From IMG/VR virus record IMGVR_UViG_3300027759_000043: DNA of 64,000 bases; one strand, given 5' to 3'. This stretch comes from a virus. Lineage: Duplodnaviria > Caudoviricetes. Both the position numbers and the translations under genes were made by a program. Below, piece after piece: positions 1,813 through 31,079 of this stretch. Numbering within the stretch: the first letter of the stretch is position 1; each line of letters opens with the position of its first letter. The notes below the pieces were generated by a model. That model did not search any database and was not told where the DNA came from. It saw only the letters and a program-made list of their open reading frames with translations.

Positions 1813-2550
1813 ATGACAGAACCAGTAACACTCAACAATGTTGACAACAAAGGCTACGAAGAGGCATACCTAGCAGACGCTATCCGTTGCAAAATGCAAC
1901 GTGATAACAAACGTTTTTGGGCCGGAGACAACATCAGTGATTATGTAAACGAACAAACCAAAACACAACTGATCGACGAAGCAACCAAGGCATTTGAAGG
2001 TGTTTTGGATGCATTGCTAATCGATCGTGAGAATGATCCCAACAGCAAAGGTACAGCACGACGTTTGGCCAAGATGTACTTTAATGAAATAATGGCAGGT
2101 AGATATGAACAGTCACCAAACGCTACGGCTTTCCCAAATGATACAGACGGTGCATACGAAGGCATGTTGGTCGTTCGTTCAGAACTCAAAAGCATGTGCT
2201 CGCACCATCACCAACCTGTGTCGGGTGTGGCTTATATTGGAATCATTGCTGGACCCAAACTTATCGGACTCAGCAAGTATACACGTATCGCTCAGTGGTG
2301 TGCTCGGAGAGGAACCTTACAAGAAGAACTATGCATGGATATTGCTCGAGAGATTGGAACTGCCACTGGGTCATCCGATGTTGCGGTTTATATACAGGCT
2401 ACCCACGGATGTTGTGAGAATCGCGGTATTATGGCACACAGTAGTCTCACGCAAACTACAGTACTCCATGGTGCATTCAAGACCGACCCAAGTGTGAAGA
2501 AAGAATTTTTTGACAACATCAAACTTCAACAAGAGTTTGCACCAAGGTAA
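1813..2550 (+). CDS. folE: GTP cyclohydrolase I (type 1)
   Basis: CSHHHQP, GLSKYTRI, LQEEL, HGCCENRG motifs; SD GGAG. Confidence 0.95.
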   Translation: MTEPVTLNNVDNKGYEEAYLADAIRCKMQRDNKRFWAGDNISDYVNEQTKTQLIDEATKAFEGVLDALLIDRENDPNSKGTARRLAKMYFNEIMAGRYEQSPNATAFPNDTDGAYEGMLVVRSELKSMCSHHHQPVSGVAYIGIIAGPKLIGLSKYTRIAQWCARRGTLQEELCMDIAREIGTATGSSDVAVYIQATHGCCENRGIMAHSSLTQTTVLHGAFKTDPSVKKEFFDNIKLQQEFAPR

Positions 2551-2553
2551 CTT

Positions 2554-2748
2554 GTGTTAGAATTAATTATTGCCGTGACAATAGGGTTTATGTTGGGCTT
2601 GACCTATCGTCAAGAACGCCTAATCCATCAATACTACAAAACACGAGACGAAATAGAACAAGAACTTTTCAAAGAGTTATCGTACTATCGAAATCTCAGT
2701 GAGAGTTTAAAACAAGATTTACACGAACTTAAAACGAGGAAAAAATGA
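2554..2748 (+). CDS. Hypothetical protein with N-terminal hydrophobic segment
   Basis: ORF track; tight packing after folE. Confidence 0.6.
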   Translation: MLELIIAVTIGFMLGLTYRQERLIHQYYKTRDEIEQELFKELSYYRNLSESLKQDLHELKTRKK

Positions 2749-2858
2749 GTTGCATTTCCAATCACGACGGATCTATTCAACTGCCTGTGGAACCAGGGCT
2801 GTTGGAATGGTTACAACAACACTATCCACATTCACAATATCATTTGACTACTATATGA
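2745..2858 (+). CDS. 37-aa hypothetical protein (MSCISNHDGSIQLPVEPGLLEWLQQHYPHSQYHLTTI), below ORF-track cutoff
   Basis: SD GAGGA; ATGA overlaps with both neighbours. Confidence 0.6.
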   Translation: MSCISNHDGSIQLPVEPGLLEWLQQHYPHSQYHLTTI

Positions 2859-3256
2859 AATACCAAACACTAGAATCAGCACAGGCCGCTGGAGCGGCAC
2901 CTTGGGATCTAAAGATAGATGAACTGTCGGACTTTCATGTCACTGTGTTCCGAGATCGCTTCCCAGTCACTAACGGTCATTTGCTGTTTGTGCCCAACTT
3001 CAACACACCTGAAGTGATCAACGAAGCATTTTACAGTGCTCAATTGGCTGGAGAGTCAATGATTAACTTGGGTGAGTGTGATGCCTACAACATTGGTATC
3101 AATCAAGGACCAGCCGCTGGACAAACTGTAATGTATCCACATGTTCATTTGATTCCTCGCAAAACTGGTGACTGCACAGACCCTATTGGTGGTGTGCGTG
3201 GGGTCATTCCTGCACAACAAAACTATAAAACTGGTGGCTACAAACAGCCAGTATAA
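2855..3256 (+). CDS. HIT-family hydrolase
   Basis: FPVTNGHLLFVP and GQTVMYPHVHLIPR; start reassigned to ATG 2855. Confidence 0.85.
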   Translation: MKYQTLESAQAAGAAPWDLKIDELSDFHVTVFRDRFPVTNGHLLFVPNFNTPEVINEAFYSAQLAGESMINLGECDAYNIGINQGPAAGQTVMYPHVHLIPRKTGDCTDPIGGVRGVIPAQQNYKTGGYKQPV

Positions 3257-3325
3257 ATATTTCTTTAAGCGGTATTGACGTCACATACTCTGCCGCCTAG
3301 ACTATAATTGACATATAAGGATAAC
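3254..3325 (+). repeat. Degenerate copy of the queD leader (4025-4105)
   Basis: Shared TAAATATT..AGCGGT..GAC.TCA..ACTCTGC.G.CTA..CTATAATT.ACATA..GGA. Confidence 0.6.
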
Positions 3326-4027
3326 ATGGTAAATCAGTTGCAACTTAATCCATATAACGAAGAAATATGTAGAGAAGTTGTTGAATTTTTTAAAGAGAAA
3401 ATCAAAAACAAATACGGAAAGTTTACAGTAAATGATTTCCGTAAATTTTATAAGTCCGACGATAATGCGCATTCTTGCGAGACTCCCAGGTACTCAGTGG
3501 TATTCGGACTTATTCCGTGTTCATCTTTTTATTATCTAAATAAATTATTAGAAATAGAACCATTGGAAATTGCAGACATCGGGTGTGGTATGAATTTTTT
3601 TAAAGATATAGTTCCCGGAATCACAGGTTTCGATGGACATGGAAAATGGCGTGATGTCAATGACGTATTTGATGATGACTTTATTACCGGACATACAGAT
3701 TTTTTCCAGTGTGCATTTTCTATCGATGCGCTACATTTTGTTCCAATAACAAATTTTTATAAACGAGTGTTAGATTTTGCAAATATTATAAAACCCAGAG
3801 GCAGAGGATATCTTGCGATGAATATGGCTCGGATGGTTGAACAGACAGATAAAAAAATTTTAAAAGAGTTGTTTAATACCGAAGACCCCAATAACAATCA
3901 ACTTTCGGACTATATAAATCAAAAAATTAAAATGTTACCTTTAAATTTTTTAGTTATTGATAATTTAATTACAGAAATATACGATGAACCTATAGATGGA
4001 AATATTAGATTAGTATTTGAAAAATAA
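3326..4027 (+). CDS. Class I SAM-dependent methyltransferase-like protein (AT-rich)
   Basis: IADIGCG motif I, ITGFD, FSIDALHF. Confidence 0.6.
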   Translation: MVNQLQLNPYNEEICREVVEFFKEKIKNKYGKFTVNDFRKFYKSDDNAHSCETPRYSVVFGLIPCSSFYYLNKLLEIEPLEIADIGCGMNFFKDIVPGITGFDGHGKWRDVNDVFDDDFITGHTDFFQCAFSIDALHFVPITNFYKRVLDFANIIKPRGRGYLAMNMARMVEQTDKKILKELFNTEDPNNNQLSDYINQKIKMLPLNFLVIDNLITEIYDEPIDGNIRLVFEK

Positions 4028-4105
4028 ATATTCAGCGGTCTCGGACATCATTCCCGCTTTACAAACTCTGCTGTCTATGCTATAATTTAACATAGGAGAA
4101 ACAGC
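4025..4105 (+). promoter_or_regulatory. queD leader: TAAATA promoter, preQ1-I-like aptamer candidate, SD-sequestering hairpin and nested sigma70 promoter
   Basis: P1 AGCGG/CCGCT; hairpin GCTGTCTATG(4070-79)/CATAG..ACAGC(4091-4105); TTTACA(4058)-17-TATAAT(4081). Confidence 0.5.
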
Positions 4106-4603
4106 ATGACACCCGTAACTTACAAATACACTTCAACCAAAGAATACCACGATGCATTTCCGTGCGCCTACAGACAATGGAGAGCCGACAGCCATTGTAA
4201 TTTGATACACGGCTATTCGTTCTCAATGAAGTTTTACTTTGGTACAAACGACCTAGACGTTCGTAACTGGGCCGCTGATTATGGTGGTCTCAAAGAACTT
4301 AAAAACGTACTAGAAGATCAATTTGATCACACATTGTTGGTTGCTGAAGATGATCCTGAACTGGAACTCTACAAAGAAATGCAACGTCGCAACATTGCCA
4401 AACTAACTATATTACCCCGACTTGGATGCGAAGGTCTTGCTGACCAACTGTACCGGTTTGTTAATGGCGTTTACATTCCTGACTTTTGGGGGCAGGGTGA
4501 AGCAGAGCGACTCTGGTGCTATCGTGTAGAAGTACGCGAAACACAGAGTAATATGGCTTTCCGAGAAGGCCATAGAGAATGGAATGAAGATTTATTTGCA
4601 TGA
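4106..4603 (+). CDS. queD: 6-carboxy-5,6,7,8-tetrahydropterin synthase
   Basis: HCNLIHGYS, DYGGLK, FDHTLL, V.VRET; folE/queE context. Confidence 0.85.
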   Translation: MTPVTYKYTSTKEYHDAFPCAYRQWRADSHCNLIHGYSFSMKFYFGTNDLDVRNWAADYGGLKELKNVLEDQFDHTLLVAEDDPELELYKEMQRRNIAKLTILPRLGCEGLADQLYRFVNGVYIPDFWGQGEAERLWCYRVEVRETQSNMAFREGHREWNEDLFA

Positions 4604-5427
4604 GCACGGATATTTCAATTTTGTTGCCCACACGTGGTAGATCAGACATGCTCATGCGTAGTCTCTCCAGCCTACATGATTTGGCCACTGACTTTTCCAC
4701 AATCGAACTTGTACTAGGTATGGACAATAATGATACCATTGGACTTGAATATCTGTTGCATCATGTCATACCCTGGATTGAAACACATAATATATCACAC
4801 AAGATTGTGATATTTGAGCCCATGGGCTATCACAATCTGCATCGCTATCTAAACGGCCTGGCTGAAAACAGCCAAGGTGGGTGGATGTTCTTCTGGAACG
4901 ATGATGCTGTAATGACGACTCAAGGATGGGATACTTACATACGTGCCAAGATTGGCGAATTTAAATTGTTAAGTGTAATAACACACAACGAACATCCTTA
5001 TTCAATTTTTCCTATCATTCCACGTGCGTGGTTTGAAACACTGGGACACATTAGTCAACACAGCCTCAATGATGCCTGGGTCAGTTGTATTGCCTATGCT
5101 CTGGACATCTTTGAACGCTTGCCCATCTACTGTAATCATGAACGTGCTGACCTCACAGGTACCAACAATGATGCAACTTATCAGCAGAGAATAGTACTTG
5201 AAGGCGATCGGAGTAATCCTCTAGACTTTAACTATCCAAGCGTGGTTGAACTTAGAATGCAAGATGCAGCCAAACTGGCGCAATGGTTGCAGGATGTGAA
5301 GAATCAAGACATGAGTTTCTTTGCAGAGTGTTGCGAAGGCACAAGAGATCCCTGGGTCAAAATGCGGGCTAACGACCCTAATCAACAAGTTATTAGTATG
5401 ACTGTGGACCGATTAAATAAAGCATGA
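4600..5427 (+). CDS. GT-A fold (GT2-like) glycosyltransferase
   Basis: ISILLPTRGR, FFWNDD (DxD-like); paralog of 7360-8199. Confidence 0.7.
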   Translation: MSTDISILLPTRGRSDMLMRSLSSLHDLATDFSTIELVLGMDNNDTIGLEYLLHHVIPWIETHNISHKIVIFEPMGYHNLHRYLNGLAENSQGGWMFFWNDDAVMTTQGWDTYIRAKIGEFKLLSVITHNEHPYSIFPIIPRAWFETLGHISQHSLNDAWVSCIAYALDIFERLPIYCNHERADLTGTNNDATYQQRIVLEGDRSNPLDFNYPSVVELRMQDAAKLAQWLQDVKNQDMSFFAECCEGTRDPWVKMRANDPNQQVISMTVDRLNKA

Positions 5428-7373
5428 CCAAAAGAACTATAAGTTTTGTACAGCCTAACTTTCAACAAGGCCCCAAAGAGTTTAATGCTTATTATTTGCC
5501 CTATTCAGCAGGGGTAATATTGAGTTATGCCATGGGTTTTGAGCACATACGTGCGGCATGGGCTATAGATCAATTGATCTGGCGCAGAGAAGATATTGAA
5601 GAACTTGCACCTCGGTTGGCCAAGAATGACGTTGTGGCATTCAGTACCTATGTGTGGAATCATAGGTACAACTACAAACTGGCTAGACGCATTAAAGAAA
5701 TCAATCCTGCTGTAACGATCATATTTGGTGGACCTGAGCCTGCCATCGAAGATCCCGAATTGTTTAACAAAGAACCTTTCATGGATTTAGTCAGCAAGAT
5801 GGAAGGTGAGATCACATTCAAACGCATACTAGAAGACTTTGATACTGATTTCAGTCACATACCAGGCCTGTTGATCAACACTCCCACAGGCTTGGTCAAC
5901 ACCGGAGACTGTGCTAGAATTGACGATCTAGATCAAATTCCTAGTCCTTATCTTACAGGCATCTTTGATAAAATCATTGAAGAAAATCCTGACGTGATCT
6001 GGAATGCCACACTAGAAACCAATCGCGGATGTCCATATCAGTGTACTTTTTGCGATTGGGGTAGTCTAACTTACAATAAGGTCAAGAAGTTTGAACTTAC
6101 CCGAGTGTTCCATGAAATGGACTGGATCGGTGCCAACTGTGGCTTTGTCACAATCACTGATGCCAACTTTGGTATGTTTGTGGAACGTGACAACATGATT
6201 GTGGACAAACTGATTGAAGTACAGAAACGTTGGGGACGCCTGGCATCATTCTCCATGACCTGGGCCAAGAATCAAAAGAACGAAGTTGTGGACATTGTGA
6301 AGAAGTTGATTGAAGAAAGTCCAAACTTTGGCCAAGGTCTTACTGTTAGTGTACAAAGTATGGATCACGACGTGTTGGAAAACATCAAACGTAGAAATCT
6401 GGATCAACACAAGATTGACGAAATCTTTGCCTTGTGTGATCGCAACAACATTCCTGTGTATACTGAGTTAATTCTAGGCTTGCCCGGAGAAACTGTTCGA
6501 ACTTGGAAAGATGCATTTTGGAAAATCTTCCGTGCCGGCAATCACACAGGCATAAACATTCTCCAAGCACAGTTATTGGAAAATGCCGAAATGAATCTTC
6601 TCCAAAAGCGCATGTGGAAGATTGATTCAGTTCCAGTGTACGATTACATGAGTGGCAGTTACGGTGATGCCGACCTTAACGAATGTGTGGATGTGGTGGT
6701 GAGTACCAAGGACATTCCCAAGGAAGAAATGTTAGACACCTTGGTCTGGAATAGTTTTATTCAGACATTTCATATCAATGGCCTAACCACCTACATTGCT
6801 AGATACCTGGACAAAGCACATGGCATTGAATACAGCCAGTTTTATGATGACTTGTATCAGTGGGTGCAAAAGGACGACTGGTTCCGTGAACAGTTTGCTG
6901 ACACACGCAACTATTTTGCCAACTGGACCCGACAAGGATCCATTGATCATCCTCCTATTGGCAACATTCAAGTGTTTGGATGGAATCTAGTGCATCGTAC
7001 TACTTTGTATATGCAAAAACAAGATCGAGTGGCCTATGTGTTCGATAGTGTTGACAGATTTGTAAAAAGCCATTATAATATTGACAAGGACATATTAGAT
7101 CAACTCATGCAGTTTCAGCGGAACTATGTGATTGACTATCGTGACCTTAAATCTTTGCCGATAAAACAACAGTTTGATTATGATTTCCTTGGCTACATTT
7201 TAGACAACGAACCAATCAAGCAAAAATGTACATACATGTTTGATACTCCAGAAGATCAAGACATGAGCATGGATCGTTTTCTTGAAAACATGTATTTTGC
7301 TAGAAAGAGAAACTTTGGAAAAACAACTATCACCCGAGACAGCATCCACAACGTCGAACTTGCCCGAGCGTGA
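5424..7373 (+). CDS. Cobalamin-binding radical SAM protein (649 aa)
   Basis: N-terminal B12-binding-like block (VAFSTYVWN..IIFGGP), ETNRGCPYQCTFC, ELILGLPGET. Confidence 0.85.
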   Translation: MTKRTISFVQPNFQQGPKEFNAYYLPYSAGVILSYAMGFEHIRAAWAIDQLIWRREDIEELAPRLAKNDVVAFSTYVWNHRYNYKLARRIKEINPAVTIIFGGPEPAIEDPELFNKEPFMDLVSKMEGEITFKRILEDFDTDFSHIPGLLINTPTGLVNTGDCARIDDLDQIPSPYLTGIFDKIIEENPDVIWNATLETNRGCPYQCTFCDWGSLTYNKVKKFELTRVFHEMDWIGANCGFVTITDANFGMFVERDNMIVDKLIEVQKRWGRLASFSMTWAKNQKNEVVDIVKKLIEESPNFGQGLTVSVQSMDHDVLENIKRRNLDQHKIDEIFALCDRNNIPVYTELILGLPGETVRTWKDAFWKIFRAGNHTGINILQAQLLENAEMNLLQKRMWKIDSVPVYDYMSGSYGDADLNECVDVVVSTKDIPKEEMLDTLVWNSFIQTFHINGLTTYIARYLDKAHGIEYSQFYDDLYQWVQKDDWFREQFADTRNYFANWTRQGSIDHPPIGNIQVFGWNLVHRTTLYMQKQDRVAYVFDSVDRFVKSHYNIDKDILDQLMQFQRNYVIDYRDLKSLPIKQQFDYDFLGYILDNEPIKQKCTYMFDTPEDQDMSMDRFLENMYFARKRNFGKTTITRDSIHNVELARA

Positions 7374-8199
7374 CCCCACACTAGATATCAGTATTTTGTT
7401 GCCCGTACGTGGCAGGCCTGAGCCCATGGAAAAGTGTTTACACACACTTATCGATCGAGCAAAAAATCCCGAACGTATTGAAGTGTTAATTGCATTTGAT
7501 GATGATGACACAGACACTATTGAATATTTTGTGGACAATATCACACCCTACTTGGATGATATGGGTGTGCGTTACAGTGCCTTGCAATTCAAACGCCTGG
7601 GATATATCAGGCTTAATGAATATCTAAACGAATTGGCCAAACACAGTCATGGTGCTTGGATGTTCTTCTGGAACGATGATGCTGTGATGACCACGCAGGA
7701 TTGGGATCAAGCGATCATGGACCATGATGATGAATTTGCACTGTTACGGGCAGAAACCAATCATGAACATCCTTATGCAATATTTCCCATTGTGCCACGC
7801 AAGTGGGTTGAAATTACCGGACACTTGAGTCCACATCAAATCAATGATGCTTGGGTAAGTCAAGTGGCTTGGATGCTGGACATTGTTATAACTATACCGG
7901 TCATGATCAATCATGAACGCTATGACCTTACTGGCAAGAACGGCGATGATGTTTACAAAAATCGCCCCATGTTGGAAGGTAACCCATCAAATCCCAAAGA
8001 CTTCAATCACATCACATGGCGCAAGATCAGAATCGACGAGTGCATGAAGTTGGCTCAGCATATTGCGCCACTAGGGCATGACATGAATCATTTCAAGTGG
8101 GGCATCGAAGGTGTTGATGACAAAGGCAATGAATATGACATCTGGTGCAAGATGAATCTCGCAGACCCGCACAAGCGATTAAAACAATGGCGAAACTAA
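7360..8199 (+). CDS. GT-A fold (GT2-like) glycosyltransferase, paralog of 4600-5427
   Basis: DISILLPVRGR, FFWNDDAVMTTQ, NHEHPY, NDAWVS; start uncertain (TTG 7360 vs ATG 7282). Confidence 0.7.
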   Translation: MPERDPTLDISILLPVRGRPEPMEKCLHTLIDRAKNPERIEVLIAFDDDDTDTIEYFVDNITPYLDDMGVRYSALQFKRLGYIRLNEYLNELAKHSHGAWMFFWNDDAVMTTQDWDQAIMDHDDEFALLRAETNHEHPYAIFPIVPRKWVEITGHLSPHQINDAWVSQVAWMLDIVITIPVMINHERYDLTGKNGDDVYKNRPMLEGNPSNPKDFNHITWRKIRIDECMKLAQHIAPLGHDMNHFKWGIEGVDDKGNEYDIWCKMNLADPHKRLKQWRN

Positions 8200-8200
8200 C

Positions 8201-8983
8201 ATGAACAATGATCAACTGATTGACCGCATTAAAAATTACTGGAACACCCAACCCTGTAATGTCAAACACAGCCTAAGTGAACCTGGTACAGAGCAATACT
8301 GGAATGAAATAAGTGAGCGTAGATATTTTGTTGAACCGCACCTTCGCGACTTAGCCAGTTTTCATTTGTGGCGCGGCAAACGTGTGTTAGAAGTAGGTTC
8401 GGGTATTGGATCAGATGCTGTGGAGTTTGTGCGCCATGGTGCTGAGTATGTGGGCATTGATCTCTCAGCAGAATCTGTGGCCATGAGCCGTCAACGTTTT
8501 GACTTGTTTGGACTTGAAGGCGAGTTTCATGTGATGGATGCCGCTGACACCGAGGCTATGGCTGCGTTGGGACAGTTTGATTTGGTATATTCATGTGGTG
8601 TGTTACATCATTATCCGGACATGACCACTTGTCTTGACAACATTCACACAGCACTTGAACCGGATGGTGAGTTCAGAATGTTAGTGTACGCAAAGAATTC
8701 CTGGAAATATGCCATGATCCGAAAAGGTCTGGACCAGTTTGAAGCACAAGCAGGCTGTCCATATGCACAGGCTTACTCAAACGAGGACATATACAATCTC
8801 CTAAATGGCAAATTTGAGGTGCTAAGGATTAGACAATCGCATTGTTTCATGTATAATGTACCTAAGTATAGACAAGGTATCTATGAACTAGAACCTTGGT
8901 TTGCAGCCATGTCGGAAGAAATGCGCGAGGCTGTAAAAGAATATCTAGGTTGGCATTTATTGGTTAAAGCAAAGAAAATATGA
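8201..8983 (+). CDS. Class I SAM-dependent methyltransferase
   Basis: VLEVGSGIG, YVGIDLS, FDLVYSCGVLHH. Confidence 0.85.
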   Translation: MNNDQLIDRIKNYWNTQPCNVKHSLSEPGTEQYWNEISERRYFVEPHLRDLASFHLWRGKRVLEVGSGIGSDAVEFVRHGAEYVGIDLSAESVAMSRQRFDLFGLEGEFHVMDAADTEAMAALGQFDLVYSCGVLHHYPDMTTCLDNIHTALEPDGEFRMLVYAKNSWKYAMIRKGLDQFEAQAGCPYAQAYSNEDIYNLLNGKFEVLRIRQSHCFMYNVPKYRQGIYELEPWFAAMSEEMREAVKEYLGWHLLVKAKKI

Positions 8984-9831
8984 GCAAACTCAAAATAGCA
9001 GAACTGTTTTATAGTATTCAAGGTGAAGGCAGATATATGGGGGTGCCCAGTGTATTCCTTCGAACCTTCGGGTGTAATTTTTCTTGCAGGGGATTTGGCA
9101 TGTCTCGAGGAGAACTTAGTGATGAAGCAGAACTTATTGATCCTACTAACTATACCGACTACAATGAATTGCCTTTGGTATCAACCGGATGTGACAGTTA
9201 TGCAAGTTGGGATCCTAGATTCAAAGATTTGAGTCCCATGTTAGAAACCAATGCTATTGTTGATCGTATCATGCAAATACTTCCGCACAAGCGTTGGGAA
9301 GATGAGCATCTTGTGATCACAGGTGGTGAGCCACTGTTAGGATGGCAACGTGCTTATCCGGACTTGTTGAATCATCCAAGCATGGGCAGACTTCGAGAAA
9401 TCACATTTGAAACTAATGGCACTCAGAGGTTAGATGATCAATTCAAACAACACTTACACACCTGGACCTCTCATCATGGTCAAGACTTCTATAGAGAAGT
9501 CACATTTAGTGTGAGTGCTAAACTACCTGGATCAGGTGAGTCATGGTCGGATGCTATCTGTCCAGATGTGGTATGTGAATATGAAGAATATGGTTATACA
9601 TACTTGAAATTGGTCGTAGCAACAGAACAGGATCTAGTAGATGCAGAACAAGCAGTTGAAGAATATCGTGCGGCTGGGTTTACAGGTCCTGTGTATGTTA
9701 TGCCTGTTGGTGGTGTTGAACGGGTGTATACCCTTAACAATCGTGCAGTGGCAGAAATGGCAATGCGAAAAGGCTGGCGGTACAGTGATAGACTACAAGT
9801 GCCACTATTTAAAAACGAATGGGGGACCTGA
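8980..9831 (+). CDS. queE: 7-carboxy-7-deazaguanine synthase (radical SAM)
   Basis: IAELFYSIQGEG..G.PSVFLRTFGCNFSC...CDS, ITGGEP, FETNGT, QVPLF terminus. Confidence 0.85.
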   Translation: MSKLKIAELFYSIQGEGRYMGVPSVFLRTFGCNFSCRGFGMSRGELSDEAELIDPTNYTDYNELPLVSTGCDSYASWDPRFKDLSPMLETNAIVDRIMQILPHKRWEDEHLVITGGEPLLGWQRAYPDLLNHPSMGRLREITFETNGTQRLDDQFKQHLHTWTSHHGQDFYREVTFSVSAKLPGSGESWSDAICPDVVCEYEEYGYTYLKLVVATEQDLVDAEQAVEEYRAAGFTGPVYVMPVGGVERVYTLNNRAVAEMAMRKGWRYSDRLQVPLFKNEWGT

Positions 9832-23789: not shown

Positions 23790-23865
23790 GGTGGGTTCAT
23801 CTAGAGGCCTAGGATAGTGCCCTTTCACGGCATTCACACCGGTTCGAATCCGGTACCCACTACCA
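23790..23865 (+). tRNA. tRNA-Glu(TTC)
   Basis: GGTGGGT/ACCCACT acceptor, GTGCC-CTTTCAC-GGCAT, GGTTCGAATCC, encoded CCA. Confidence 0.95.
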
Positions 23866-23945
23866 TATAGAAACATATTGCCGAGGAGCGACGTCTTTAC
23901 CATGGGCTCCGACCATAACGAGAGGTAGTGTGTTTCTATATGGTA
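23861..23945 (+). ncRNA. Structured ncRNA candidate A (19-bp closing stem)
   Basis: TACCATATAGAAACATATT/AGTGTGTTTCTATATGGTA with G-U pairs; inner GGAGC/GCTCC hairpin. Confidence 0.65.
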
Positions 23946-24068
23946 ACCATATAGAAGTATTCTTGGCATAAGTCAAAGCAGGAGAAGAAGCCTAGTATCT
24001 GCAGATGCGAAAGTTTCAGTGGTGCAAATCCCCTCCTAGGCCTGCCGTCGAGAGTGCTTCTATATGGT
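23946..24068 (+). ncRNA. Structured ncRNA candidate B (19-bp closing stem, tRNA-like T-arm)
   Basis: ACCATATAGAAGTATTCTT/GAGAGTGCTTCTATATGGT; GCAGG/CCTGC; GCCTAG/CTAGGC; GGTGCAAATCC loop. Confidence 0.7.
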
Positions 24069-24070
24069 AG

Positions 24071-24225
24071 ATGTTATAGTCAAGCATCGATAAGGTATCG
24101 TGTATGGACGCATACACTATTCGGGTCACAGCGGCCGGCGACTGATCCTAATATAACTGCATTCGGCTTTTGCACTCTTAGCGGAGGACGCATAAATTGG
24201 CATTCTCGGTGCTTGACTATAATAT
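24071..24225 (+). ncRNA. Structured ncRNA candidate C (20-bp closing stem, multibranch)
   Basis: ATGTTATAGTCAAGCATCGA/TCGGTGCTTGACTATAATAT; inner GTGTATG/CATACAC, GGGTCA/TGATCC, TGCA/TGCA. Confidence 0.65.
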
Positions 24226-24227
24226 TT

Positions 24228-24302
24228 GGTCCGATAGTATATCGGTTAGTATTTCGCACTGTCACTGCGAGGAGACGGGTTCGATTCCCGTTCGGACCGC
24301 CA
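24228..24302 (+). tRNA. tRNA-Asp(GTC)
   Basis: GGTCCGA/TCGGACC, TCGCA-CTGTCAC-TGCGA, CCA. Confidence 0.95.
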
Positions 24303-24309
24303 AGTTTTT

Positions 24310-24374
24310 GAGAGCCGCATCGCCCTGATACTTCCCTCGGTAACGAGACACTAGGTCTTGCAACAGCGGCTCTC
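24310..24374 (+). ncRNA. Small structured element D (9-bp closing stem)
   Basis: GAGAGCCGC/GCGGCTCTC; CTCG-GTAA-CGAG GNRA hairpin. Confidence 0.5.
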
Positions 24375-24392
24375 CCCTTTAAGGAGTTGACT

Positions 24393-24629
24393 GTGACTGA
24401 TACATTAAACAACTTGTCAGCAGGCATTACTGCTACTATTGACGACATAGTAGGCAATCACAGTTACACTGATAGATTAAAGAGCATGGGGTTCCGATCA
24501 GGACAAAGTATTCAAGTTCTTAGACGAACTCCGCATTGTATGCATGTGCGAGTGGGTTTCAGTGAGTGGGCCATACGCAACCAAGATGCAAAGTTAGTAA
24601 AAATTATTCCCCGAGAGCAATCTAGGTGA
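24393..24629 (+). CDS. feoA: Stand-alone FeoA (SH3-like) domain protein
   Basis: RLKSMGFRSGQSIQVLRR..HVRVG..AIRNQDA; SD AAGGAG then GTG 24393; stop lies inside tRNA-Asn. Confidence 0.75.
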   Translation: MTDTLNNLSAGITATIDDIVGNHSYTDRLKSMGFRSGQSIQVLRRTPHCMHVRVGFSEWAIRNQDAKLVKIIPREQSR

Positions 24630-24683
24630 AGGCGGCGGACTGTTAATCCGTGAAGCCTGGTTCGAATCCAGGTCGGGGAGCCA
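24608..24683 (+). tRNA. tRNA-Asn(GTT)
   Basis: TCCCCGA/TCGGGGA, GCGGA-CTGTTAA-TCCGT, G73, CCA. Confidence 0.93.
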
Positions 24684-24703
24684 ACCTCTTAATAAGTATC
24701 GTT

Positions 24704-25366
24704 ATGACATTCGAAGATTTATGTATATTATTTTACTATCCTCCTTCTGCTGGTGGTAAGTTTATTATCAACAGTTTGAGTCTTAGTAAAAATTGTGTGT
24801 TACATTCTAATGAACTTGCGCAATGGGAACTAGATCAAACTGATATTGATTTGTTATACAAAAAAAAATTAGAAACTATCTTAAAAACTGTTCCTGAAAA
24901 TGCACTAGATGGCACTTGGCAAAAATATGAATTAGGAGACTCTTGGTTTCAAGACAAAAATCTAACGATAACACCAGATCTTCAGAAGATTATCAATAGT
25001 TCAAAACATTTTTGTTCCATATATCATAACGTTGACGAACTTCGATTAATTTTATCAATGTATCCAAGAACTCGTGTTGTAAAACTTACCAACTATGTTA
25101 ACTGGATGATTTACTGTAGTGCAAAAACAAGAATAACAGATATTGATGAAAAAAGAATCCATTGGTCGTTTATTGATAAAAATGAAATAGAATCTCCGAC
25201 AGTTGACTGGATTCTTATCGATATCGATAATTCAATAAGATCTATGGCCGTGATGCAACAGCAAATAGAAATACTTTATAACAAATTAGGATTCGACGAC
25301 TTTGACGAATCACGGTGGCGGCAGTACTATATCAAGTATGCTCAAAGTCACAAATTGGCTCCGTAG
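24704..25366 (+). CDS. Hypothetical AT-rich protein inserted between tRNAs
   Basis: TAAGTA at 24693, ATG 5 nt later; YYPPSAGGKF motif resembles YFPGAGGNF of 29296-29946; stop inside tRNA-Trp. Confidence 0.65.
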   Translation: MTFEDLCILFYYPPSAGGKFIINSLSLSKNCVLHSNELAQWELDQTDIDLLYKKKLETILKTVPENALDGTWQKYELGDSWFQDKNLTITPDLQKIINSSKHFCSIYHNVDELRLILSMYPRTRVVKLTNYVNWMIYCSAKTRITDIDEKRIHWSFIDKNEIESPTVDWILIDIDNSIRSMAVMQQQIEILYNKLGFDDFDESRWRQYYIKYAQSHKLAP

Positions 25367-25433
25367 TTCAGTCCGGCAGAACGTTGGTCTCCAAAACCAA
25401 ATGTCAGAGGTTCAAATCCTTTCGGGGTCGCCA
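25357..25433 (+). tRNA. tRNA-Trp(CCA)
   Basis: GGCTCCG/CGGGGTC, TTGGT-CTCCAAA-ACCAA, CCA. Confidence 0.92.
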
Positions 25434-25438
25434 TACAT

Positions 25439-25526
25439 GGAGGTATCGCATAGCGGTCGATTGCACGGGACTGTAAATCCTGCGTCCCAAGGGACCTCGG
25501 TGGTTCAAATCCATCTACCTCCACCA
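25439..25526 (+). tRNA. tRNA-Tyr(GTA)
   Basis: GGAGGTA/TACCTCC, CTGTAAA loop, long variable arm GTCCC/GGGAC, CCA. Confidence 0.95.
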
Positions 25527-25529
25527 TAT

Positions 25530-25603
25530 GCCTCGTTAGTTTAATGATAGAACTCCGTCTTTACACGGCGGTTACGGCAGTTCGATTTTGTCACGAGGTA
25601 TCA
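25530..25603 (+). tRNA. tRNA-Val(TAC), wobble-rich T arm, ends TCA
   Basis: GCCTCGT/ACGAGGT, CCGTC-TTTACAC-GGCGG; no encoded CCA. Confidence 0.75.
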
Positions 25604-25610
25604 TTGCTTA

Positions 25611-25794
25611 TATAAATAACTTGAGCAACGCCAGCAAGGGCTGACGTCGGACTTGATATTGACGCCTAGGGTAGAGAAACCCTTTTACTAGTGTGTTACA
25701 CGTAGAACGCCAATTCCCGTAAACATATTTCTATGTAAAGCCAGAAACATCAACAAACACTATAACAAAGTGTAAATTACTTTTTGGAACTATT
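25611..25794 (+). promoter_or_regulatory. TATAAATA late promoter followed by long structured leader of tctC-like gene
   Basis: TATAAATA at 25611; hairpins CAGC/GCTG, CGTC/GACG, AGGGT/ACCCT, GTGT/ACAC. Confidence 0.5.
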
Positions 25795-26676
25795 ATGAAA
25801 AAACTTTACATACTCTTATGCTCTGTTCTGTATTTTTGTATTGCAAGCGCGGCACCTGTTAACATTATTTTACCAGTGCCGCCAGGCGGTGTCATGACCG
25901 ATCTTGCAATGGCTCTGAGTCAAACGTTGACCGATGAAGGCATTGAAAATTTTGTATCGTATCTGCCCGGTGCAGATGGTGACATTGCATATAATACTGT
26001 GCTAAAACAACAAGATAATGTTATCTTTGAAGTTGCAGTGGCACACTCAGTATTCAGCAACGTTCTTCGTGACCGAGACAATATCTACACCAAGAATATG
26101 ACAATGATTGCACCTGTTATCCGTTCACCACTTGGATTTGTGTCTAATAACAAAAACTTTGGCTCATTTCGCGAGTTGATTGAGTATGCAAAATTAAATC
26201 CTTTGCCTTGCGGAGTAAGTGCGCCACATGGTTCAGCAGAACTAGCACGTATAAACAAAAAGTATGGAACAAGATTTGAATCAGTTCCTTACAAAGGCAA
26301 TAGTCAGTTGCGCCCTGATCTAGTAGAAGGCACATTAAGATGTGCCCTTGACAGTGTAGGATCTCACATTCCTTTGCACAATGACGGCAAACTCAAAATC
26401 CTGTCAGTTACTCATGCCACGCGAGGACTGGATGTTCTAATGATGGATCGAGTACTGCCTGGATACACATTCGATAATTGGTTTGGATTTGCTATTCCCA
26501 AGGATAGCAACATATTAAAAGACGAGCGTGTGATGAAAGTTGTTAACAACTTACACAAGTCTAAAAAACTTGAGCCATTACTTGATGCTGGATTTTTACA
26601 TGCTGTTCCACAATCAAACATCGAAAAGATCATGGATCAACAAACTGATCAGTACCGCCAACAGTTGAAAAAGTAA
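25795..26676 (+). CDS. tctC: Bug/TctC-family tripartite tricarboxylate transporter substrate-binding protein
   Basis: Signal peptide, PPGG..D..A, PGADG.IA, VPYKG, DLVEG, DNWFGFAIPK. Confidence 0.8.
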   Translation: MKKLYILLCSVLYFCIASAAPVNIILPVPPGGVMTDLAMALSQTLTDEGIENFVSYLPGADGDIAYNTVLKQQDNVIFEVAVAHSVFSNVLRDRDNIYTKNMTMIAPVIRSPLGFVSNNKNFGSFRELIEYAKLNPLPCGVSAPHGSAELARINKKYGTRFESVPYKGNSQLRPDLVEGTLRCALDSVGSHIPLHNDGKLKILSVTHATRGLDVLMMDRVLPGYTFDNWFGFAIPKDSNILKDERVMKVVNNLHKSKKLEPLLDAGFLHAVPQSNIEKIMDQQTDQYRQQLKK

Positions 26677-26677
26677 T

Positions 26678-27796
26678 ATGTACGCTTACAAGATCGACAA
26701 TCAGTTTTTTAACAATATCTATTTGGCCTTACACGAGGCAAGAAAAACTCGCAAGCAGATAGAATTTTACTGTAACGATCAAGAGTTTGACAAGTACAAC
26801 TGGACAAGCGAACCAGAAGCAACGTTAGATTTTCTCATGTCGGTCTATGCCACAAGACTGCGAAATCAACACAAACGTTTGATAATGGCATACAGTGGTG
26901 GAACAGATAGTCACACCATATACAATGTTTTTAAAAACAACAATATTCACATTGACGAGATTGTTGTCAAGACAGAGAAAAGTTCCAATCATCTTCCTAC
27001 TGCTACTGCGGATTGGTTAAGAAACAATCATTGGGATAAGACCACACTGATCACCGAGGTTGATAATTTTGATCAAGACCTCAAACTAAAAGAATCACCT
27101 GATGAAGACTGGATCTGGCGTAACGAGCGTAGCCTGTTCATGTACGGAATATCTCCAATGGGCCAAGGCATTATTGATCGGCTTGAACAGCGTTATGGAA
27201 ACACTGACTTTCGTTTGATTTGCGGGGTCGAAAAACCACGACTGATTTACAGAAACAAACATTGGTATCACCGTCAGATGGGCTTGTGTTTCCATCAAAT
27301 CATGGGCCACGAAAAAATTGTTCCGTTCTTTATGGAACCGTTGATTGCAATCAAACAAGCGCACATGTGCAAGCAAGCAGTCAAGCAATTGATTGCTGTA
27401 AACAAATTACCGTTGTATGACAACGATTGGGCTGAAGCCAAGTGGAATAAAACTCCCGAAGGATATCGTGCATGGTGCAACGGCACCGGACGTCACGATG
27501 AATTGTTTCTAGGTGTGAGTCCTGCACAAAAGGCGCTGAATGAAGTATTAGATCGAGTCGAATTTAACTTGTCTGGCAACTGGAAAAAAATGAACAATTC
27601 TAAAGATTTTAGATTATTGTATGACTTGCAAGATTCCAAACAGACTGCTGTAAACTATACCAAAGGCTTTTTGAACTTGTCAAGTGAGTTTGGATTCATT
27701 GGATGGCTTCAAGAAAACGGTTGGCTACGAAACTCTGAATCAGAATTACGTAGACTAAATTTTGTATGGTCCAAAGAATATGATTTGGGCCCGTAA
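26678..27796 (+). CDS. PP-loop (adenine nucleotide alpha hydrolase-like) protein
   Basis: MAYSGGTDSHT; G.EKPRL. Confidence 0.6.
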   Translation: MYAYKIDNQFFNNIYLALHEARKTRKQIEFYCNDQEFDKYNWTSEPEATLDFLMSVYATRLRNQHKRLIMAYSGGTDSHTIYNVFKNNNIHIDEIVVKTEKSSNHLPTATADWLRNNHWDKTTLITEVDNFDQDLKLKESPDEDWIWRNERSLFMYGISPMGQGIIDRLEQRYGNTDFRLICGVEKPRLIYRNKHWYHRQMGLCFHQIMGHEKIVPFFMEPLIAIKQAHMCKQAVKQLIAVNKLPLYDNDWAEAKWNKTPEGYRAWCNGTGRHDELFLGVSPAQKALNEVLDRVEFNLSGNWKKMNNSKDFRLLYDLQDSKQTAVNYTKGFLNLSSEFGFIGWLQENGWLRNSESELRRLNFVWSKEYDLGP

Positions 27797-27809
27797 AAAA
27801 GGATAAAAT

Positions 27810-28466
27810 ATGGACATAGGCGTTGATTATAAAAGACTAAGCGATTTTCCAGTGAAAATTCTTCAGCCACTACAAGAACTGGCATCAACAATGGATTGGT
27901 CATTACCGGACTTTGATAGGAACGGTGATTATTTGAACAACGCCATTGTTAGGGTGCCATATGGTATTCGCAAAGAACCACTGCAATCATTGACGCCAAT
28001 TATTCAACAGTTTTTAGATGCGTTTGCTCCCATTGACGCCTACATGAAAACGTTGTATCCACAACATGTATTCATCAAATGCGAAATGAACTGGCTCAAG
28101 CCTGGCGAAGTAGTGCCAATTCATAAAGATAATTGTTGGTGGCACAAACATTGTCCTCGTGTGCATGTTCCTGTAATCACAAACAAGCAATGTGGTTGGG
28201 TAGTAGAAGGACGTTTGCATCATCTACCAGTGGGCAGTTACTATGAAGTCAACAATAGAAAATTCCATTCTGCTGTTAACAATGGCAACAATGGTAGGTT
28301 GCACCTGGTGTTTGATATCATGGAACAATCGGTGTATGATAATGCTGTTGCCGCAGGAATCGACATTAGTCATCAAGACATTGTTGATCATAAACTGAGC
28401 AGTTGGGATCAATTGCCTAACGACAAAGATAACCGTCTGTTGGCTTCACTGGGGTTTGTTTTATAA
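27810..28466 (+). CDS. Aspartyl/asparaginyl beta-hydroxylase-like 2OG-Fe(II) oxygenase
   Basis: IHKD..RVHVPVITN..EVNNRKFHSAVN..RLHLVFD. Confidence 0.8.
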   Translation: MDIGVDYKRLSDFPVKILQPLQELASTMDWSLPDFDRNGDYLNNAIVRVPYGIRKEPLQSLTPIIQQFLDAFAPIDAYMKTLYPQHVFIKCEMNWLKPGEVVPIHKDNCWWHKHCPRVHVPVITNKQCGWVVEGRLHHLPVGSYYEVNNRKFHSAVNNGNNGRLHLVFDIMEQSVYDNAVAAGIDISHQDIVDHKLSSWDQLPNDKDNRLLASLGFVL

Positions 28467-28480
28467 AACTCTTTGTTGTG

Positions 28481-28509
28481 TTGACAAACAACAACTAATC
28501 GTATATAAT
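28481..28509 (+). promoter_or_regulatory. sigma70 promoter of second tRNA block
   Basis: TTGACA-17-TATAAT. Confidence 0.8.
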
Positions 28510-28528
28510 ACATGATAATAGAAACAAC

Positions 28529-28606
28529 GCACTGGTGGCAGAGTGGTCCAATGCATGGGATTGCAAATCCCAAAAGCCGCTGGTTCAAATCCAGCCCAGT
28601 GCTCCA
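28529..28606 (+). tRNA. tRNA-Cys(GCA)
   Basis: GCACTGG/CCAGTGC, TGGGA-TTGCAAA-TCCCA, U73, CCA. Confidence 0.95.
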
Positions 28607-28610
28607 AACG

Positions 28611-28841
28611 TTCCAGCGTCACTGGATAGTCTGACCCAGACGATGAGAAGTACAATGACATGTACGGGTGGTTCTGAAGAGGCAAATCTTCACATGGTAA
28701 CATGCGGTCCAACCTAACCGGCGTTAGCAACACGATAGCGGTCCCTGTCGGGAAGCGGGTGGAAGGAGTACAAGTTGCGGTGTGTAGTGGAAAGACTATC
28801 ACTCAATGCTCTATAATTACCGCCGGGGGACGCAGAGCATC
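28611..28841 (+). ncRNA. Structured ncRNA candidate E (~230 nt, many hairpins, possible pseudoknot)
   Basis: TCCAG/CTGGA, GTCT/AGAC, GTACA/TGTAC, TGAAGA/TCTTCA, CATG-GTAA-CATG, CTAAC/GTTAG; GTCCCT/GGGGAC crossing ATGCTCT/AGAGCAT. Confidence 0.65.
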
Positions 28842-28848
28842 TTATTAC

Positions 28849-28923
28849 CGCGGGATGGAGAAGCGGTAACTCGTCAGGCTCATAACCTGAAGATCGGCGG
28901 TTCGATTCCGTCTCCCGCAACCA
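28849..28923 (+). tRNA. tRNA-Met(CAT), initiator-like
   Basis: C1xA72 mismatch, TCAGG-CTCATAA-CCTGA, CCA. Confidence 0.92.
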
Positions 28924-28924
28924 A

Positions 28925-28998
28925 GCCCTTTTAGTTTAATGGTAAAACAGTTGATTTGTAATCATCAGACGTTAGTTCGATTCTATCAAGGGGCGCCA
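28925..28998 (+). tRNA. tRNA-Thr(TGT)
   Basis: GCCCTTT/AAGGGGC, TTTGTAA loop; one U-U mismatch each in anticodon and T stems. Confidence 0.8.
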
Positions 28999-29012
28999 TA
29001 CTAGGAAACATT

Positions 29013-29261
29013 ATGTTAGAATATGTCATCACCTTCTTTGCAGTATTTGCCACTGACTTGATCTATGTGTACTTTGTGAAATCAATTCAAGACAATCGTC
29101 CGCTGATGGCGGCTTGGTGGAGTATGGCGGTGACCTTTACTGCCAGTGTGGCAGTGATCAATTACACTGCGGATCACTGGGCCTTGATTCCGGCTTTGTT
29201 AGGTGCTTATTGCGGTACCTTGTTTGGCATGTGGATCAAGCGAAGAATCAACTCCGATTAG
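29013..29261 (+). CDS. Small membrane protein
   Basis: Three hydrophobic segments; SD AGGA. Confidence 0.7.
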   Translation: MLEYVITFFAVFATDLIYVYFVKSIQDNRPLMAAWWSMAVTFTASVAVINYTADHWALIPALLGAYCGTLFGMWIKRRINSD

Positions 29262-29295
29262 CATAACCCGGCAGCGCCTGTGATTTGAGACTAAT

Positions 29296-29946
29296 TCAAA
29301 TAAATGGGTCGACTCGTAATGATCGCCATTCCTGATAATAAAGTATACTACAATCAATTTCAGGAGTTAACTTTAATGCATCACAAACCATCAAGTATTG
29401 TTCCATGAAATAATCCACGCCTTTAAGAATTTGTGTCATTGACATTGTGACTGTAATCGGCAGCGCCTTTATTGTGATTTCTTCTGTGTATTGTTCATCG
29501 GTTATTTGATAGGAGGGTAAGAATATGCCAAACTGTTTAAAATAATTGAAAGAATTTTCTATCCAATGTCCATATTTTCCACAGTCAAGTTCAAGGAAAA
29601 CAATTTTTTCAAGATAAGATAATCTATCCTGATAAGTGTTAGTATGGTTTGTAACAATAGACCAATCAAAGCAAGAGTCCATCAATGGATTTTTATAATA
29701 AAAGTCTGGAGCAAAAAAATCATCACGATTATTATGAAATCTTTTAAAATCCTCCAAAGATTTGAAGCGCACCAGGTCTTTTCGTTGTTTTGCTGACATT
29801 GATTTTATTTGAATTATTTCTTCATCTGAACAGACACTAATTGGTTTGTGATAATATGGAACTGTTTCTTTGCTCAACGACAGACAAAATTTTATAAAAT
29901 TTCCTCCAGCGCCGGGAAAATAAATTACAGAGCAAGGTTTTATCAT
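29296..29946 (-). CDS. Hypothetical AT-rich protein
   Basis: TAAGTA 5 nt upstream on minus strand; YFPGAGGNF. Confidence 0.65.
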   Translation of the reverse strand: MIKPCSVIYFPGAGGNFIKFCLSLSKETVPYYHKPISVCSDEEIIQIKSMSAKQRKDLVRFKSLEDFKRFHNNRDDFFAPDFYYKNPLMDSCFDWSIVTNHTNTYQDRLSYLEKIVFLELDCGKYGHWIENSFNYFKQFGIFLPSYQITDEQYTEEITIKALPITVTMSMTQILKGVDYFMEQYLMVCDALKLTPEIDCSILYYQEWRSLRVDPFI

Positions 29947-29969
29947 AGGATTACTTATAGAGTTACATA

Positions 29970-30053
29970 GCGAGCATGAGAGAATTGGTAGATTCCAAGA
30001 ACTTACAATTCACTGCGAGATACGTCTCAATTCGACTCCGGGTGCTTGCACCA
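29970..30053 (+). pseudogene. Degenerate tRNA-Leu-type gene with TAC anticodon
   Basis: GCGAGCA/TGCTTGC+ACCA, Leu-like D loop and long variable region; loop CTTACAA; broken anticodon and T stems. Confidence 0.7.
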
Positions 30054-30203
30054 GGTGGTATCTAATTTAAACTCACGTTTGGGATTTATTAGCATAGGGT
30101 CTATCACAAAATCTCTACGCACAGTAGAAAACCAGTGTTCACGATACTGGCCTTGAGCCGCTTTGTACAATTCTTCAATGCCATGTTCAGTATCAAATCT
30201 CAT
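30027..30203 (-). CDS. 58-aa ORF (MRFDTEHGIEELYKAAQGQYREHWFSTVRRDFVIDPMLINPKREFKLDTTWCKHPESN), antisense to pseudo-tRNA
   Basis: TAAATA 5 nt upstream of ATG; missed by the 60-aa cutoff. Confidence 0.55.
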   Translation of the reverse strand: MRFDTEHGIEELYKAAQGQYREHWFSTVRRDFVIDPMLINPKREFKLDTTWCKHPESN

Positions 30204-30250
30204 AGCAATATTTATTACAAGTATTGCTCTCTCTAATGCTAACTAATAGC

Positions 30251-30898
30251 ATGATCAAAAGAATTGTTGCATATGGGGACAGTATTACCTATGGATACGA
30301 CTTGCCTGACTGTGACGATTGCCCTAGCAATTTAACTTATGCCGCACTAGTGGCCAAGCATTACGGACTAGAGTATGAATGTCGTGCAGTAGGATCAAAC
30401 GCCAATCAAAGTATCACAAGAAATCTACTAGATTCAGAAATACTATCAACAGATCTAGTGATAATCATGTGGACTTTTATAGATCGTAAAGATTTTTTAT
30501 TTGATGGTGCACTAGGATGGCGCAGTATTTCCGTACACCATACATCTCAGTATCCTTTTGCAAGTGAGTATTATAGATATATCGATACCTCACTTGATTA
30601 CGAACTGTACTTGACTCATAAAGAAATTGTAATTGTGCAAAAATATTTAGAAGCAAATCACATACCTTTTTTATTTTTGTCTGCTACTGATACTATTCTC
30701 AAAAGTTTAAATTGGGATAATACAAATCTATTGCACCTAATAGACAGATCAAAATGGGTAATACCTTTCCAAGGTCAAGGATTTTACGATTGGACCAAAG
30801 ATCAACGTTTAACAGTGCCCAAAGGAGGACATCCAAACGAATCGGCCAATCGTATTCTTGCTGATTACATAATCAGTCAGGATTTAATTAGTAAGTGA
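30251..30898 (+). CDS. SGNH hydrolase-like protein
   Basis: AYGDSITYG, GSNANQ, GGHP. Confidence 0.65.
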   Translation: MIKRIVAYGDSITYGYDLPDCDDCPSNLTYAALVAKHYGLEYECRAVGSNANQSITRNLLDSEILSTDLVIIMWTFIDRKDFLFDGALGWRSISVHHTSQYPFASEYYRYIDTSLDYELYLTHKEIVIVQKYLEANHIPFLFLSATDTILKSLNWDNTNLLHLIDRSKWVIPFQGQGFYDWTKDQRLTVPKGGHPNESANRILADYIISQDLISK

Positions 30899-30907
30899 AA
30901 ATATAAA

Positions 30908-30997: not shown

Positions 30998-31003
30998 GTC
31001 AAA

Positions 31004-31077: not shown

Positions 31078-31079
31078 GA

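Follow-up and report, generated by a model that had tools for sequence, protein, structure and literature searches.

The leader of the queD-like gene and its pseudoknot

The DNA analyzed here (the window) is a stretch of 64,000 nucleotides (nt) of a Caudoviricetes virus, IMG/VR record IMGVR_UViG_3300027759_000043, one of a group of uncultured freshwater phages. On its + strand it carries a queD-like gene of the 6-pyruvoyltetrahydropterin synthase (PTPS) family (4106-4603, 165 amino acids (aa), assigned by profile matches), and its leader of about 70 bases lies between the AUG at 4106 and the stop codon TAA (4025-4027) of the open reading frame (ORF) directly upstream (3326-4027, also listed from 3308). 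Here, we report that this leader contains an H-type pseudoknot whose 3' strand overlaps a hairpin that sequesters the ribosome-binding site, which suggests a translational ON switch. A first-pass annotation, made from the letters of the window, had proposed at this place a variant of the class I preQ1 (preQ1-I) aptamer, a hairpin sequestering the Shine-Dalgarno (SD) sequence and nested promoters, and every element that it named is found where it had been placed.

The pseudoknot spans 4034-4075, about 42 nt, and is formed by two helices, P1 and P2, together with three loops, L1-L3, all on the + strand. P1 has 5 base pairs (bp), AGCGG (4034-4038) with CCGCU (4054-4058), exactly as annotated, and encloses a loop of 15 nt in the window and 13-19 nt across the leaders of relatives. 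This loop is made up of L1, UCUCG (4039-4043; consensus N-C-U-(U), variable in length), the P2 5' strand, GACA-U-CA (4044-4050), and L2, UUC (4051-4053); it is followed, after the P1 3' strand, by L3, UUACAAACUC (4059-4068; consensus W-U-A-N-A-A-A-Y-U-C), and by the P2 3' strand, UG-C-UGUC (4069-4075), which pairs with 4044-4050. The first-pass pairing of loop GGACA (4043-4047) with UGUCU (4072-4076) is complementary, but the real P2 has 6-7 bp rather than 5, i.e., GACA-U-CA/UG-C-UGUC, with 4 + 2 bp flanking an invariant UxC mismatch (U4048/C4071) in the window. A single-sequence fold of the window leader is only marginal (z = -1.9 versus shuffles); therefore, the case depends on the comparison with relatives.

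Three protein-seeded scans of IMG/VR gave at least 240 loci, with QueD 84-100% identical, and 118 distinct leaders were taken from the matches listed. Please note that the collecting filter admitted only leaders with a C right before the P1 3' strand, and that no such filter was applied to this column in the MAFFT alignments A1 and A2. A covariance model, R1, was built of P2 and sequence with P1 left out, and 95 of the distinct leaders are in the alignment to this model, A3. P1 was not in R1, yet it is 99.4% paired in A3; in a structure-anchored parse it is canonical in 100% of the 118 leaders, and three of its five pairs covary (A-U/U-A; G-C/C-G/U-A; C-G/A-U/U-A). For the full pseudoknot in A3, which is fitted to P2 and so favors P2, 92.3% of the cells are paired versus 75.5% in shuffles, both-side changes amount to 169 cells versus 62.5 and occur at 9 of the 11 pairs, and the covariation score is 0.389 versus 0.112; none of 500 shuffles attained 0.389, and the score falls to 0.02-0.075 when the partners are slid by 1-3 columns. 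The distal four P2 pairs have a mean of 3.27 canonical pairs per leader, versus 1.94 +/- 0.11 when 5' and 3' halves are permuted among leaders, i.e., 11.7 standard deviations above. Absence of covariation, with conservation limited to promoter hexamers, had been named in the first-pass annotation as part of the outcome that would refute its proposal; the covariation analysis that it suggested gave the opposite, P1 and P2 both covarying beyond shuffled and slid controls.

The distal part of P2 is highly variable as sequence: GACA/UGUC (the window), GGCG/CGCC, GGUG/CACC, GGCU/AGCC, GGCA/UGCC, GACG/CGUC and others, as well as the longer GACAU/AUGUC, GACUU/AAGUC and GGCAU/AUGCC. Its general form is 5'-NNNN-U-CA-3' paired with 5'-UG-C-NNNN-3', i.e., four to five variable pairs, the invariant UxC, and then C-G and A-U, the inner pair being A-U in 111 and G-C in 7 of the 118 leaders. 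The loop-end UCAUC and the tail-end UCUGC covary, and leaders with UCCGC always have UCG(U/A/C)C. An alternative register of P2, in which GCA of the loop would pair with the invariant UGC, is ruled out by this covariation (UCAUC/UCUGC, UCGUC/UCCGC), since the UGC is explained as part of one extended P2 helix. G-U pairs are present in the + strand sense only; the RNA is therefore the + strand.

The loops are conserved in a position-specific manner. L1 has C at position 2 in all 118 leaders and U at position 3 in 117; the U noted in the first-pass annotation right after the P1 5' strand is present (U4039), but this position is not conserved (U in 52, C in 38, A in 28 leaders). L2 is 2-3 nt long and its last base, an unpaired C in 118 of 118 leaders, is the one annotated right before the P1 3' strand; in the window it is C4053, the candidate specificity base, and both it and the G4038-C4054 pair are invariant in A1, A2 and A3, hence also without the filter. 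L3 is 10 nt long in 117 of the 118 leaders, and its A positions are near-invariant, which bears out the A-rich tail annotated after P1 (UUACAAAC at 4059-4066 in the window). The consensus reads NNNGG / N-C-U-(U...) / NNNN-U-CR / (Y)N-C / CCNNN / W-U-A-N-A-A-A-Y-U-C / YG-C-NNNN. We regard it as near certain that the leader is a real structured RNA.

Expression platforms, putative promoters and distribution

Downstream of the pseudoknot, UCUAUG (4074-4079) and CAUAGG (4091-4096) form the SD-sequestering hairpin P3 (4074-4096, + strand), whose 5' strand shares the last 2 nt of P2 and whose 3' strand runs into the SD sequence AGGAG (4094-4098, + strand), 7 nt 5' of the AUG. The competition between P2 and an SD hairpin (4070-4105) that had been annotated is thus present, and its inner part, CCUAUG/CAUAGG, is conserved, but the outer GCUGU/ACAGC is not conserved in relatives. 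The 118 leaders fall into three classes by their hairpin. Class I (80 leaders, the window among them) has CCUAUG/CAUAGG or, as in the window, UCUAUG/CAUAGG in 74 of 80 leaders, and about three-quarters of the SD core bases are covered. In class II (28 leaders), (U)GUC(A/G)UC/GAUGGC(A) lies over the start codon, and compensated variants occur, e.g., UGUCAUC/GGUGACA with a GUG start; in class III (10 leaders), UG(C/U)CAUUG/CAAUGGCA lies over the start codon. In all three classes the hairpin 5' strand starts inside the P2 3' strand (the overlap is 1-2 nt for class I leaders and 3-4 nt for those of classes II and III), so that the hairpin loses its G-C base when P2 is complete. Three times a sequestering hairpin has been invented anew, and each one overlaps P2; this suggests that both conformers are of importance, as in a switch and not in a static leader.

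The consequence for the ribosome-binding site was estimated with a nearest-neighbour ensemble model in which P1 was forced and the P2 strands were made unavailable. In this model, which is crude because pseudoknot energetics and sterics are ignored, formation of P1 and P2 raises the unpaired probability of the SD sequence from 0.25 to 0.71 in class I, and that of the AUG from 0.06 to 0.33 in class II and from 0.00 to 0.42 in class III. According to these calculations, pseudoknot formation probably exposes the ribosome site, i.e., the logic would be ON.

Promoter-like elements are nested in and around the leader, as had been annotated, and they recur in relatives. A sigma70-type promoter, TTTACA-17-TATAAT (4058-4086, + strand; 11 of 12 matches, predicted start about 4093), has its -35 box within L3 and its -10 box within the P3 loop; among the class I leaders, 71 of 78 have an internal promoter with at least 9 of 12 matches, and none of the 36 class II/III leaders has one; the 5' variants of L3 shift toward TTGACA (TCGACA, TTGACA, TTGAAA). 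Transcripts from this internal promoter are predicted to lack the aptamer and the P3 5' strand, which fits the first-pass view that the switch would act on only some of the transcripts. The ATAAATA element (4024-4030, + strand) lies 3 nt 5' of P1 and is a candidate T4-late-like or -10-like promoter; TAA[A/G]TA ends 3-12 nt 5' of P1 in 62 of 78 class I leaders, and a strong TTGACx-N16/17-TATAAT ends 8-9 nt 5' of P1 in 15 of 36 class II/III leaders. Since these promoter-like elements end just 5' of P1, the aptamer would stand at the 5' end of the transcript. TAAATA is similar to TATAAAT, the late promoter of T4 type (PMC9004378). In the window, ATAAATA is enriched in non-coding DNA (7 of 11 sites); the genes behind the other sites have no PHROG annotation and the window is without structural genes; a late-promoter role is putative. 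A 3-kb stretch had no match listed in RNA libraries, and the matches to a short stretch there are contigs of relatives, one of which (X28 record 9) spans 4023-4111 and 44 nt further 5'; it was used for no conclusion, as contigs cannot show transcript starts and DNA carry-over is possible.

One may ask if these promoters, together with a terminator-like hairpin behind the upstream gene, are all there is, i.e., DNA-level signals and no functional RNA fold. The strong sigma70-type promoter does overlap L3 and P3, TAAATA and the promoter hexamers are conserved, and the single-sequence fold is weak, all of which would suit such an explanation; base changes that compensate each other in P1 and in P2, a long-range helix crossing P1, do not, neither does a P1 loop of 13-19 nt with no U-tract after it, which is not terminator-like, and the class II/III leaders, which are without the internal promoter, retain the pseudoknot. 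We consider this explanation extremely improbable. A cassette of intrinsic terminator and promoter (PeSL-like), in which a G+C-rich hairpin with a short loop and a U-tract behind it would recur at many intergenic sites, was also considered and rejected on the loop length of 13-19 nt, the missing U-tract and the single intact copy per genome.

The element is tied to queD. Of 81 sources, 73 have exactly one copy according to R1, whose sole match in the window (64 kb) is 4032-4079 (55.9 bits); in each of five phage genomes of 235-518 kb, complete or nearly so, R1 finds one copy, always as the queD leader. An exact pattern of the commonest variant matches at least 120 IMG/VR stretches, of which 80 were examined: a QueD-like ORF lies directly 3' in 77, an ORF is inserted before queD in 2, and 1 is at a contig end. 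The genes 5' of the leader differ among relatives. As is generally asked of a riboswitch, a conserved aptamer is thus combined with a platform of mutually exclusive pairings, exclusively with a queD-like gene. Among 185,579 prokaryote species genomes the pattern matches five contigs, and only one match is real; it lies on an 8-kb contig from a metagenome-assembled genome (MAG) of Chitinophagales (CAZXGO010000106.1) that has a class II leader and queD and is probably phage DNA binned into the MAG. The other four are chance matches with no P1 5' strand or queD.

Not every relative has the element. In seven loci (L024, L025, L026, L035, L043, L044 and L067) the translation of queD is coupled to that of the gene upstream, and no leader lies within 3 kb; since some of the close relatives are without the leader, the switch is dispensable in part of the clade. 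GenBank phages gave no near, distant or leader-only match; in the closest cultured-phage queD genes (ACP17, X1 and R5C) queD is coupled to the upstream ORF without a leader, and there is therefore no cultured model for the element. We found no description of it in the literature. As side observations on its surroundings, a 282-aa ORF that looks like a homing-endonuclease-type insertion lies between an intact leader and queD in one relative (L322:4849-5800), and an extra ORF occupies the same place in another (L297:4373-5156).

Relation to preQ1-I and nature of the proposed switch

At gathering level, Rfam 15 reports only tRNAs and transfer-messenger RNA (tmRNA) in the whole window, and at E<=10 three different leaders (for the window, 3980-4140) gave chance matches only and no PreQ1; a match to the freshwater-2 model (15 bits) was discarded because only the SD region aligned. 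The preQ1-I model RF00522 (gathering threshold 39 bits), run on contigs of five relatives, matched at chance level only (9-14 bits), and always outside the leader. The preQ1 model search that had been suggested as a check thus found no match at the motif, in agreement with the earlier guess of a variant and not a canonical preQ1-I.

The likeness to preQ1-I is nevertheless considerable. preQ1-I aptamers are H-type pseudoknots with a conserved G-C pocket floor and a specificity C right 5' of the P1 3' strand, and a conserved U6 at the start of L1 reads N9 of the ligand (PMC11625349). The phage element shares with them (types I-III: B. subtilis queC, T. tengcongensis, C. antarcticum, E. coli) the small H-type topology, P2 being formed when bases of the P1 loop pair with the 3' tail; a P1 of 5 bp that has GG/CC at its top and the conserved G-C as floor; the unpaired C right 5' of the P1 3' strand, which follows a U as it does in type I; and an L3 that is A-rich and starts W-U-A, as is seen when UUACAAACUC of the window is compared with UUAACAAAA of the Tte aptamer, CUGGG-UCG-CAG-UAAC-CCCAG-UUAACAAAA-CAAGG (PMC10639078). 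Shared are also the position in the leader of a queuosine/7-deazaguanine pathway gene and, by prediction, the action on translation. The differences concern the parts that would read the ligand and the output. The phage L1 is N-C-U, not U-U-C or U-C, and the U6 contact is not conserved; P2 has 6-10 bp with the invariant UxC mismatch versus 3-4 bp; the last L3 adenine of preQ1-I (A30) contacts the ligand and leads into P2, whereas the phage L3 has a conserved A-run and then Y-U-C before P2; and the phage P2 3' strand overlaps the anti-SD/anti-AUG strand, not the SD itself, which predicts ON, not OFF. The phage element is also found only in uncultured phages.

These comparisons bear on the alternative that the leader contains an ordinary if diverged preQ1-I riboswitch, which would, like all members described, bind preQ1 and shut translation off. 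The H-type topology, the GG/CC-topped P1, the C before its 3' strand, the A-rich L3 and the queuosine-pathway gene 3' are all as expected of one. RF00522, which reported chance matches down to 9 bits, would however have to remain silent at the motif in the window and in five relatives' contigs, the L1 equivalent of U6 would have to vary, and the pseudoknot would have to close a site that its overlap with the anti-SD/anti-AUG strand seems to open; moreover, the 2024 review of the preQ1-I family has no phage and no gene-on member (PMC11625349). An ordinary preQ1-I riboswitch is, in our opinion, improbable. As far as the sequence can tell, the element is not an RF00522 member and behaves like a rewired preQ1-I.

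We consider the element a phage-specific, cis-acting translational ON switch with a preQ1-I-like pseudoknot, most likely a riboswitch whose ligand is a guanine-faced metabolite from the FolE-QueD-QueE pathway, i.e., a 7-deazaguanine or a pterin, and assign to this reading a probability of roughly 0.6. In such a switch a ligand bound at the P1/P2 junction would stabilize the full P2, the full P2 would strip the G-C base from the sequestering hairpin, and the ribosome-binding site would be freed. Transcripts started at TAAATA, or read through from upstream, would carry the switch, and those from the internal TTTACA-17-TATAAT, starting at about 4093, would be translated without control.

Several points weigh against this reading. 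The calculated opening of the SD sequence in the window is modest (unpaired probability only 0.34 to 0.54 on P1 and P2 formation) in a model whose crudeness was mentioned above; P2, with 6-10 bp across the leaders, could form without a ligand; the TAAATA element, from which switch-bearing transcripts would start, is a putative promoter. The silence of RF00522 and the L1 difference, with the loss of the U6 contact, count here as well. In addition, neither a TGT/DpdA family gene nor a genuine QueC is encoded by the five complete relatives (G003 and G006-G009), so that the pathway product, and with it the expected ligand, can be named only tentatively, and an end-product ON switch would be of odd logic.

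As to the ligand, the proposal of a deazapurine or a pterin is drawn from gene context only; the unpaired C, pairing with a 2-amino-4-oxo face, would suit 7-deazaguanines, guanine and pterins equally. Because TGT/DpdA and QueC are missing in these relatives, the cluster of FolE, QueD-like and QueE-like proteins with glycosyltransferases and methyltransferases is probably not feeding the usual preQ0-into-DNA route, and its product is probably not the usual preQ0-derived DNA base. One may speculate that, for an ON switch, dihydroneopterin triphosphate or another substrate or precursor would make more sense as the signal than would an end product. A more specific version of the riboswitch proposal, which we put forward tentatively and hold somewhat less likely to be right than wrong, is that the element is the first of a new phage-only riboswitch class with a preQ1-I fold and translational ON output, sensing a guanine-faced intermediate (e.g., dihydroneopterin triphosphate, 6-carboxytetrahydropterin (CPH4) or 7-carboxy-7-deazaguanine (CDG)) in a pathway whose end product is not a DpdA-inserted base, and gating an auxiliary metabolic gene on late or read-through transcripts.

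The covariation and the platform data, however, are independent of the agent and suit anything that shifts the balance between P2 and P3. A real RNA switch or operator could also be flipped by a protein (autoregulation by the QueD-like protein or a phage translational repressor), by temperature or by the kinetics of co-transcriptional folding. In T4, the pseudoknot in the gene 32 leader nucleates cooperative binding of the gene's own product to an unstructured region; it is likewise an H-type pseudoknot at a phage mRNA 5' end, upstream of the ribosome-binding site, and differs from the present element, in which the pseudoknot competes directly with the SD/AUG hairpin and has a preQ1-I-like pocket layout. 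Ligand-free H-type pseudoknots can also have invariant loop bases and A-rich L3 triplexes, P2 here is long enough to form unaided, and no known riboswitch model matches, all of which can be counted in favor of a flip by protein, temperature or kinetics. What makes such a flip unlikely in our view, though it is the most serious competitor, is that the compactness of about 42 nt, the C at the ligand-reading site of preQ1-I and the fixed 10-nt L3 are typical of metabolite aptamers and that the element is linked exclusively to one metabolic gene in very different genomes; a protein partner in particular has no consistently adjacent candidate, as the upstream genes vary.

If the riboswitch reading is right, its interest would be as follows. 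Riboswitches are rare in phages and the known cases are borrowed bacterial families, such as the glutamine glnA-type riboswitches of marine myophages like Melnitz (PMC9004378). The latter are likewise cis-regulatory RNAs, carried by large aquatic phages in which tRNAs and a permuted tmRNA are also encoded; they belong, however, to a known bacterial family that standard models find, whereas the element of the window has no bacterial counterpart in the 185,579 genomes except the one MAG contig. A riboswitch-like class limited to viruses would be the result, with a preQ1-I-like aptamer of about 42 nt and inverted output. It would further give a handle on how large freshwater phages regulate a 7-deazapurine/pterin pathway and on the rewiring of one RNA fold from OFF to ON, and the more than 100 natural variants with three interchangeable expression platforms are a ready mutational data set.

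Gene neighborhood and a decayed second copy

The gene order around the leader is FolE (1813-2550), a HIT protein, an unknown ORF, the leader, the QueD-like gene and a glycosyltransferase, and then a B12-binding radical S-adenosylmethionine (SAM) methyltransferase (KedN5-type), a second glycosyltransferase, a methyltransferase and a QueE-like radical SAM protein, the whole cluster covering 1813-9831. The QueD-like protein matches PF01242 with 52 bits and PHROG 2389 ('QueD-like') with 123 bits; against TIGR03367 (QueD) it scores 31.6 bits, under the cut-off of 89 bits, and for this reason its product may be different from CPH4. At the place of CxxxHGH, which we take to be the canonical QueD zinc/catalytic motif, it has CNLIHGY.

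The unknown ORF directly 5' of the leader (3326-4027, 233 aa) has no match in Pfam, NCBIfam or PHROG. Homologues with about 42% identity lie 5' of the leader in two relatives (L203 and L321) and between leader and queD in a third (L297). A DIGCG motif in this ORF recalls SAM methyltransferases.

A second, decayed copy of the leader can be read from the sequence at 3253-3325 (+ strand), after the HIT gene and before ORF 3326-4027; R1 does not detect it. Its layout is ATAAATA-TTTCTTTA-AGCGG-TATTGACGTCAC-AT-ACTCTGCCGCC-TAGACTATAAT... and it was compared with intact GGCG/CGCC-type leaders that stand after the same HIT 3' end, e.g., that of L005. It retains ATAAATA, the P1 5' strand AGCGG, the tail end ...CUCUGCCGCC and TATAAT; the P1 3' strand and L3 are lost, and the P2 5' strand is mutated to a TTGACG -35 box. 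The intact copy before queD is of the other P2 type, GACA/UGUC, and because the two copies differ in P2 type the region looks recombinant. The pair is a natural control, i.e., the copy that no longer precedes queD is the copy that lost the aptamer.

Elsewhere in the window there are 11 tRNA genes (within 23790-32362) and a tmRNA (32009-32362) that fits both the betaproteobacterial and the permuted tmRNA models; the tmRNA is followed by a terminator-like hairpin and by an ATAAATA site (32368). The - strand has a second cluster of auxiliary metabolic genes at 48144-59169, where a Nol-like carbamoyltransferase adjoins at least three radical SAM domain proteins.

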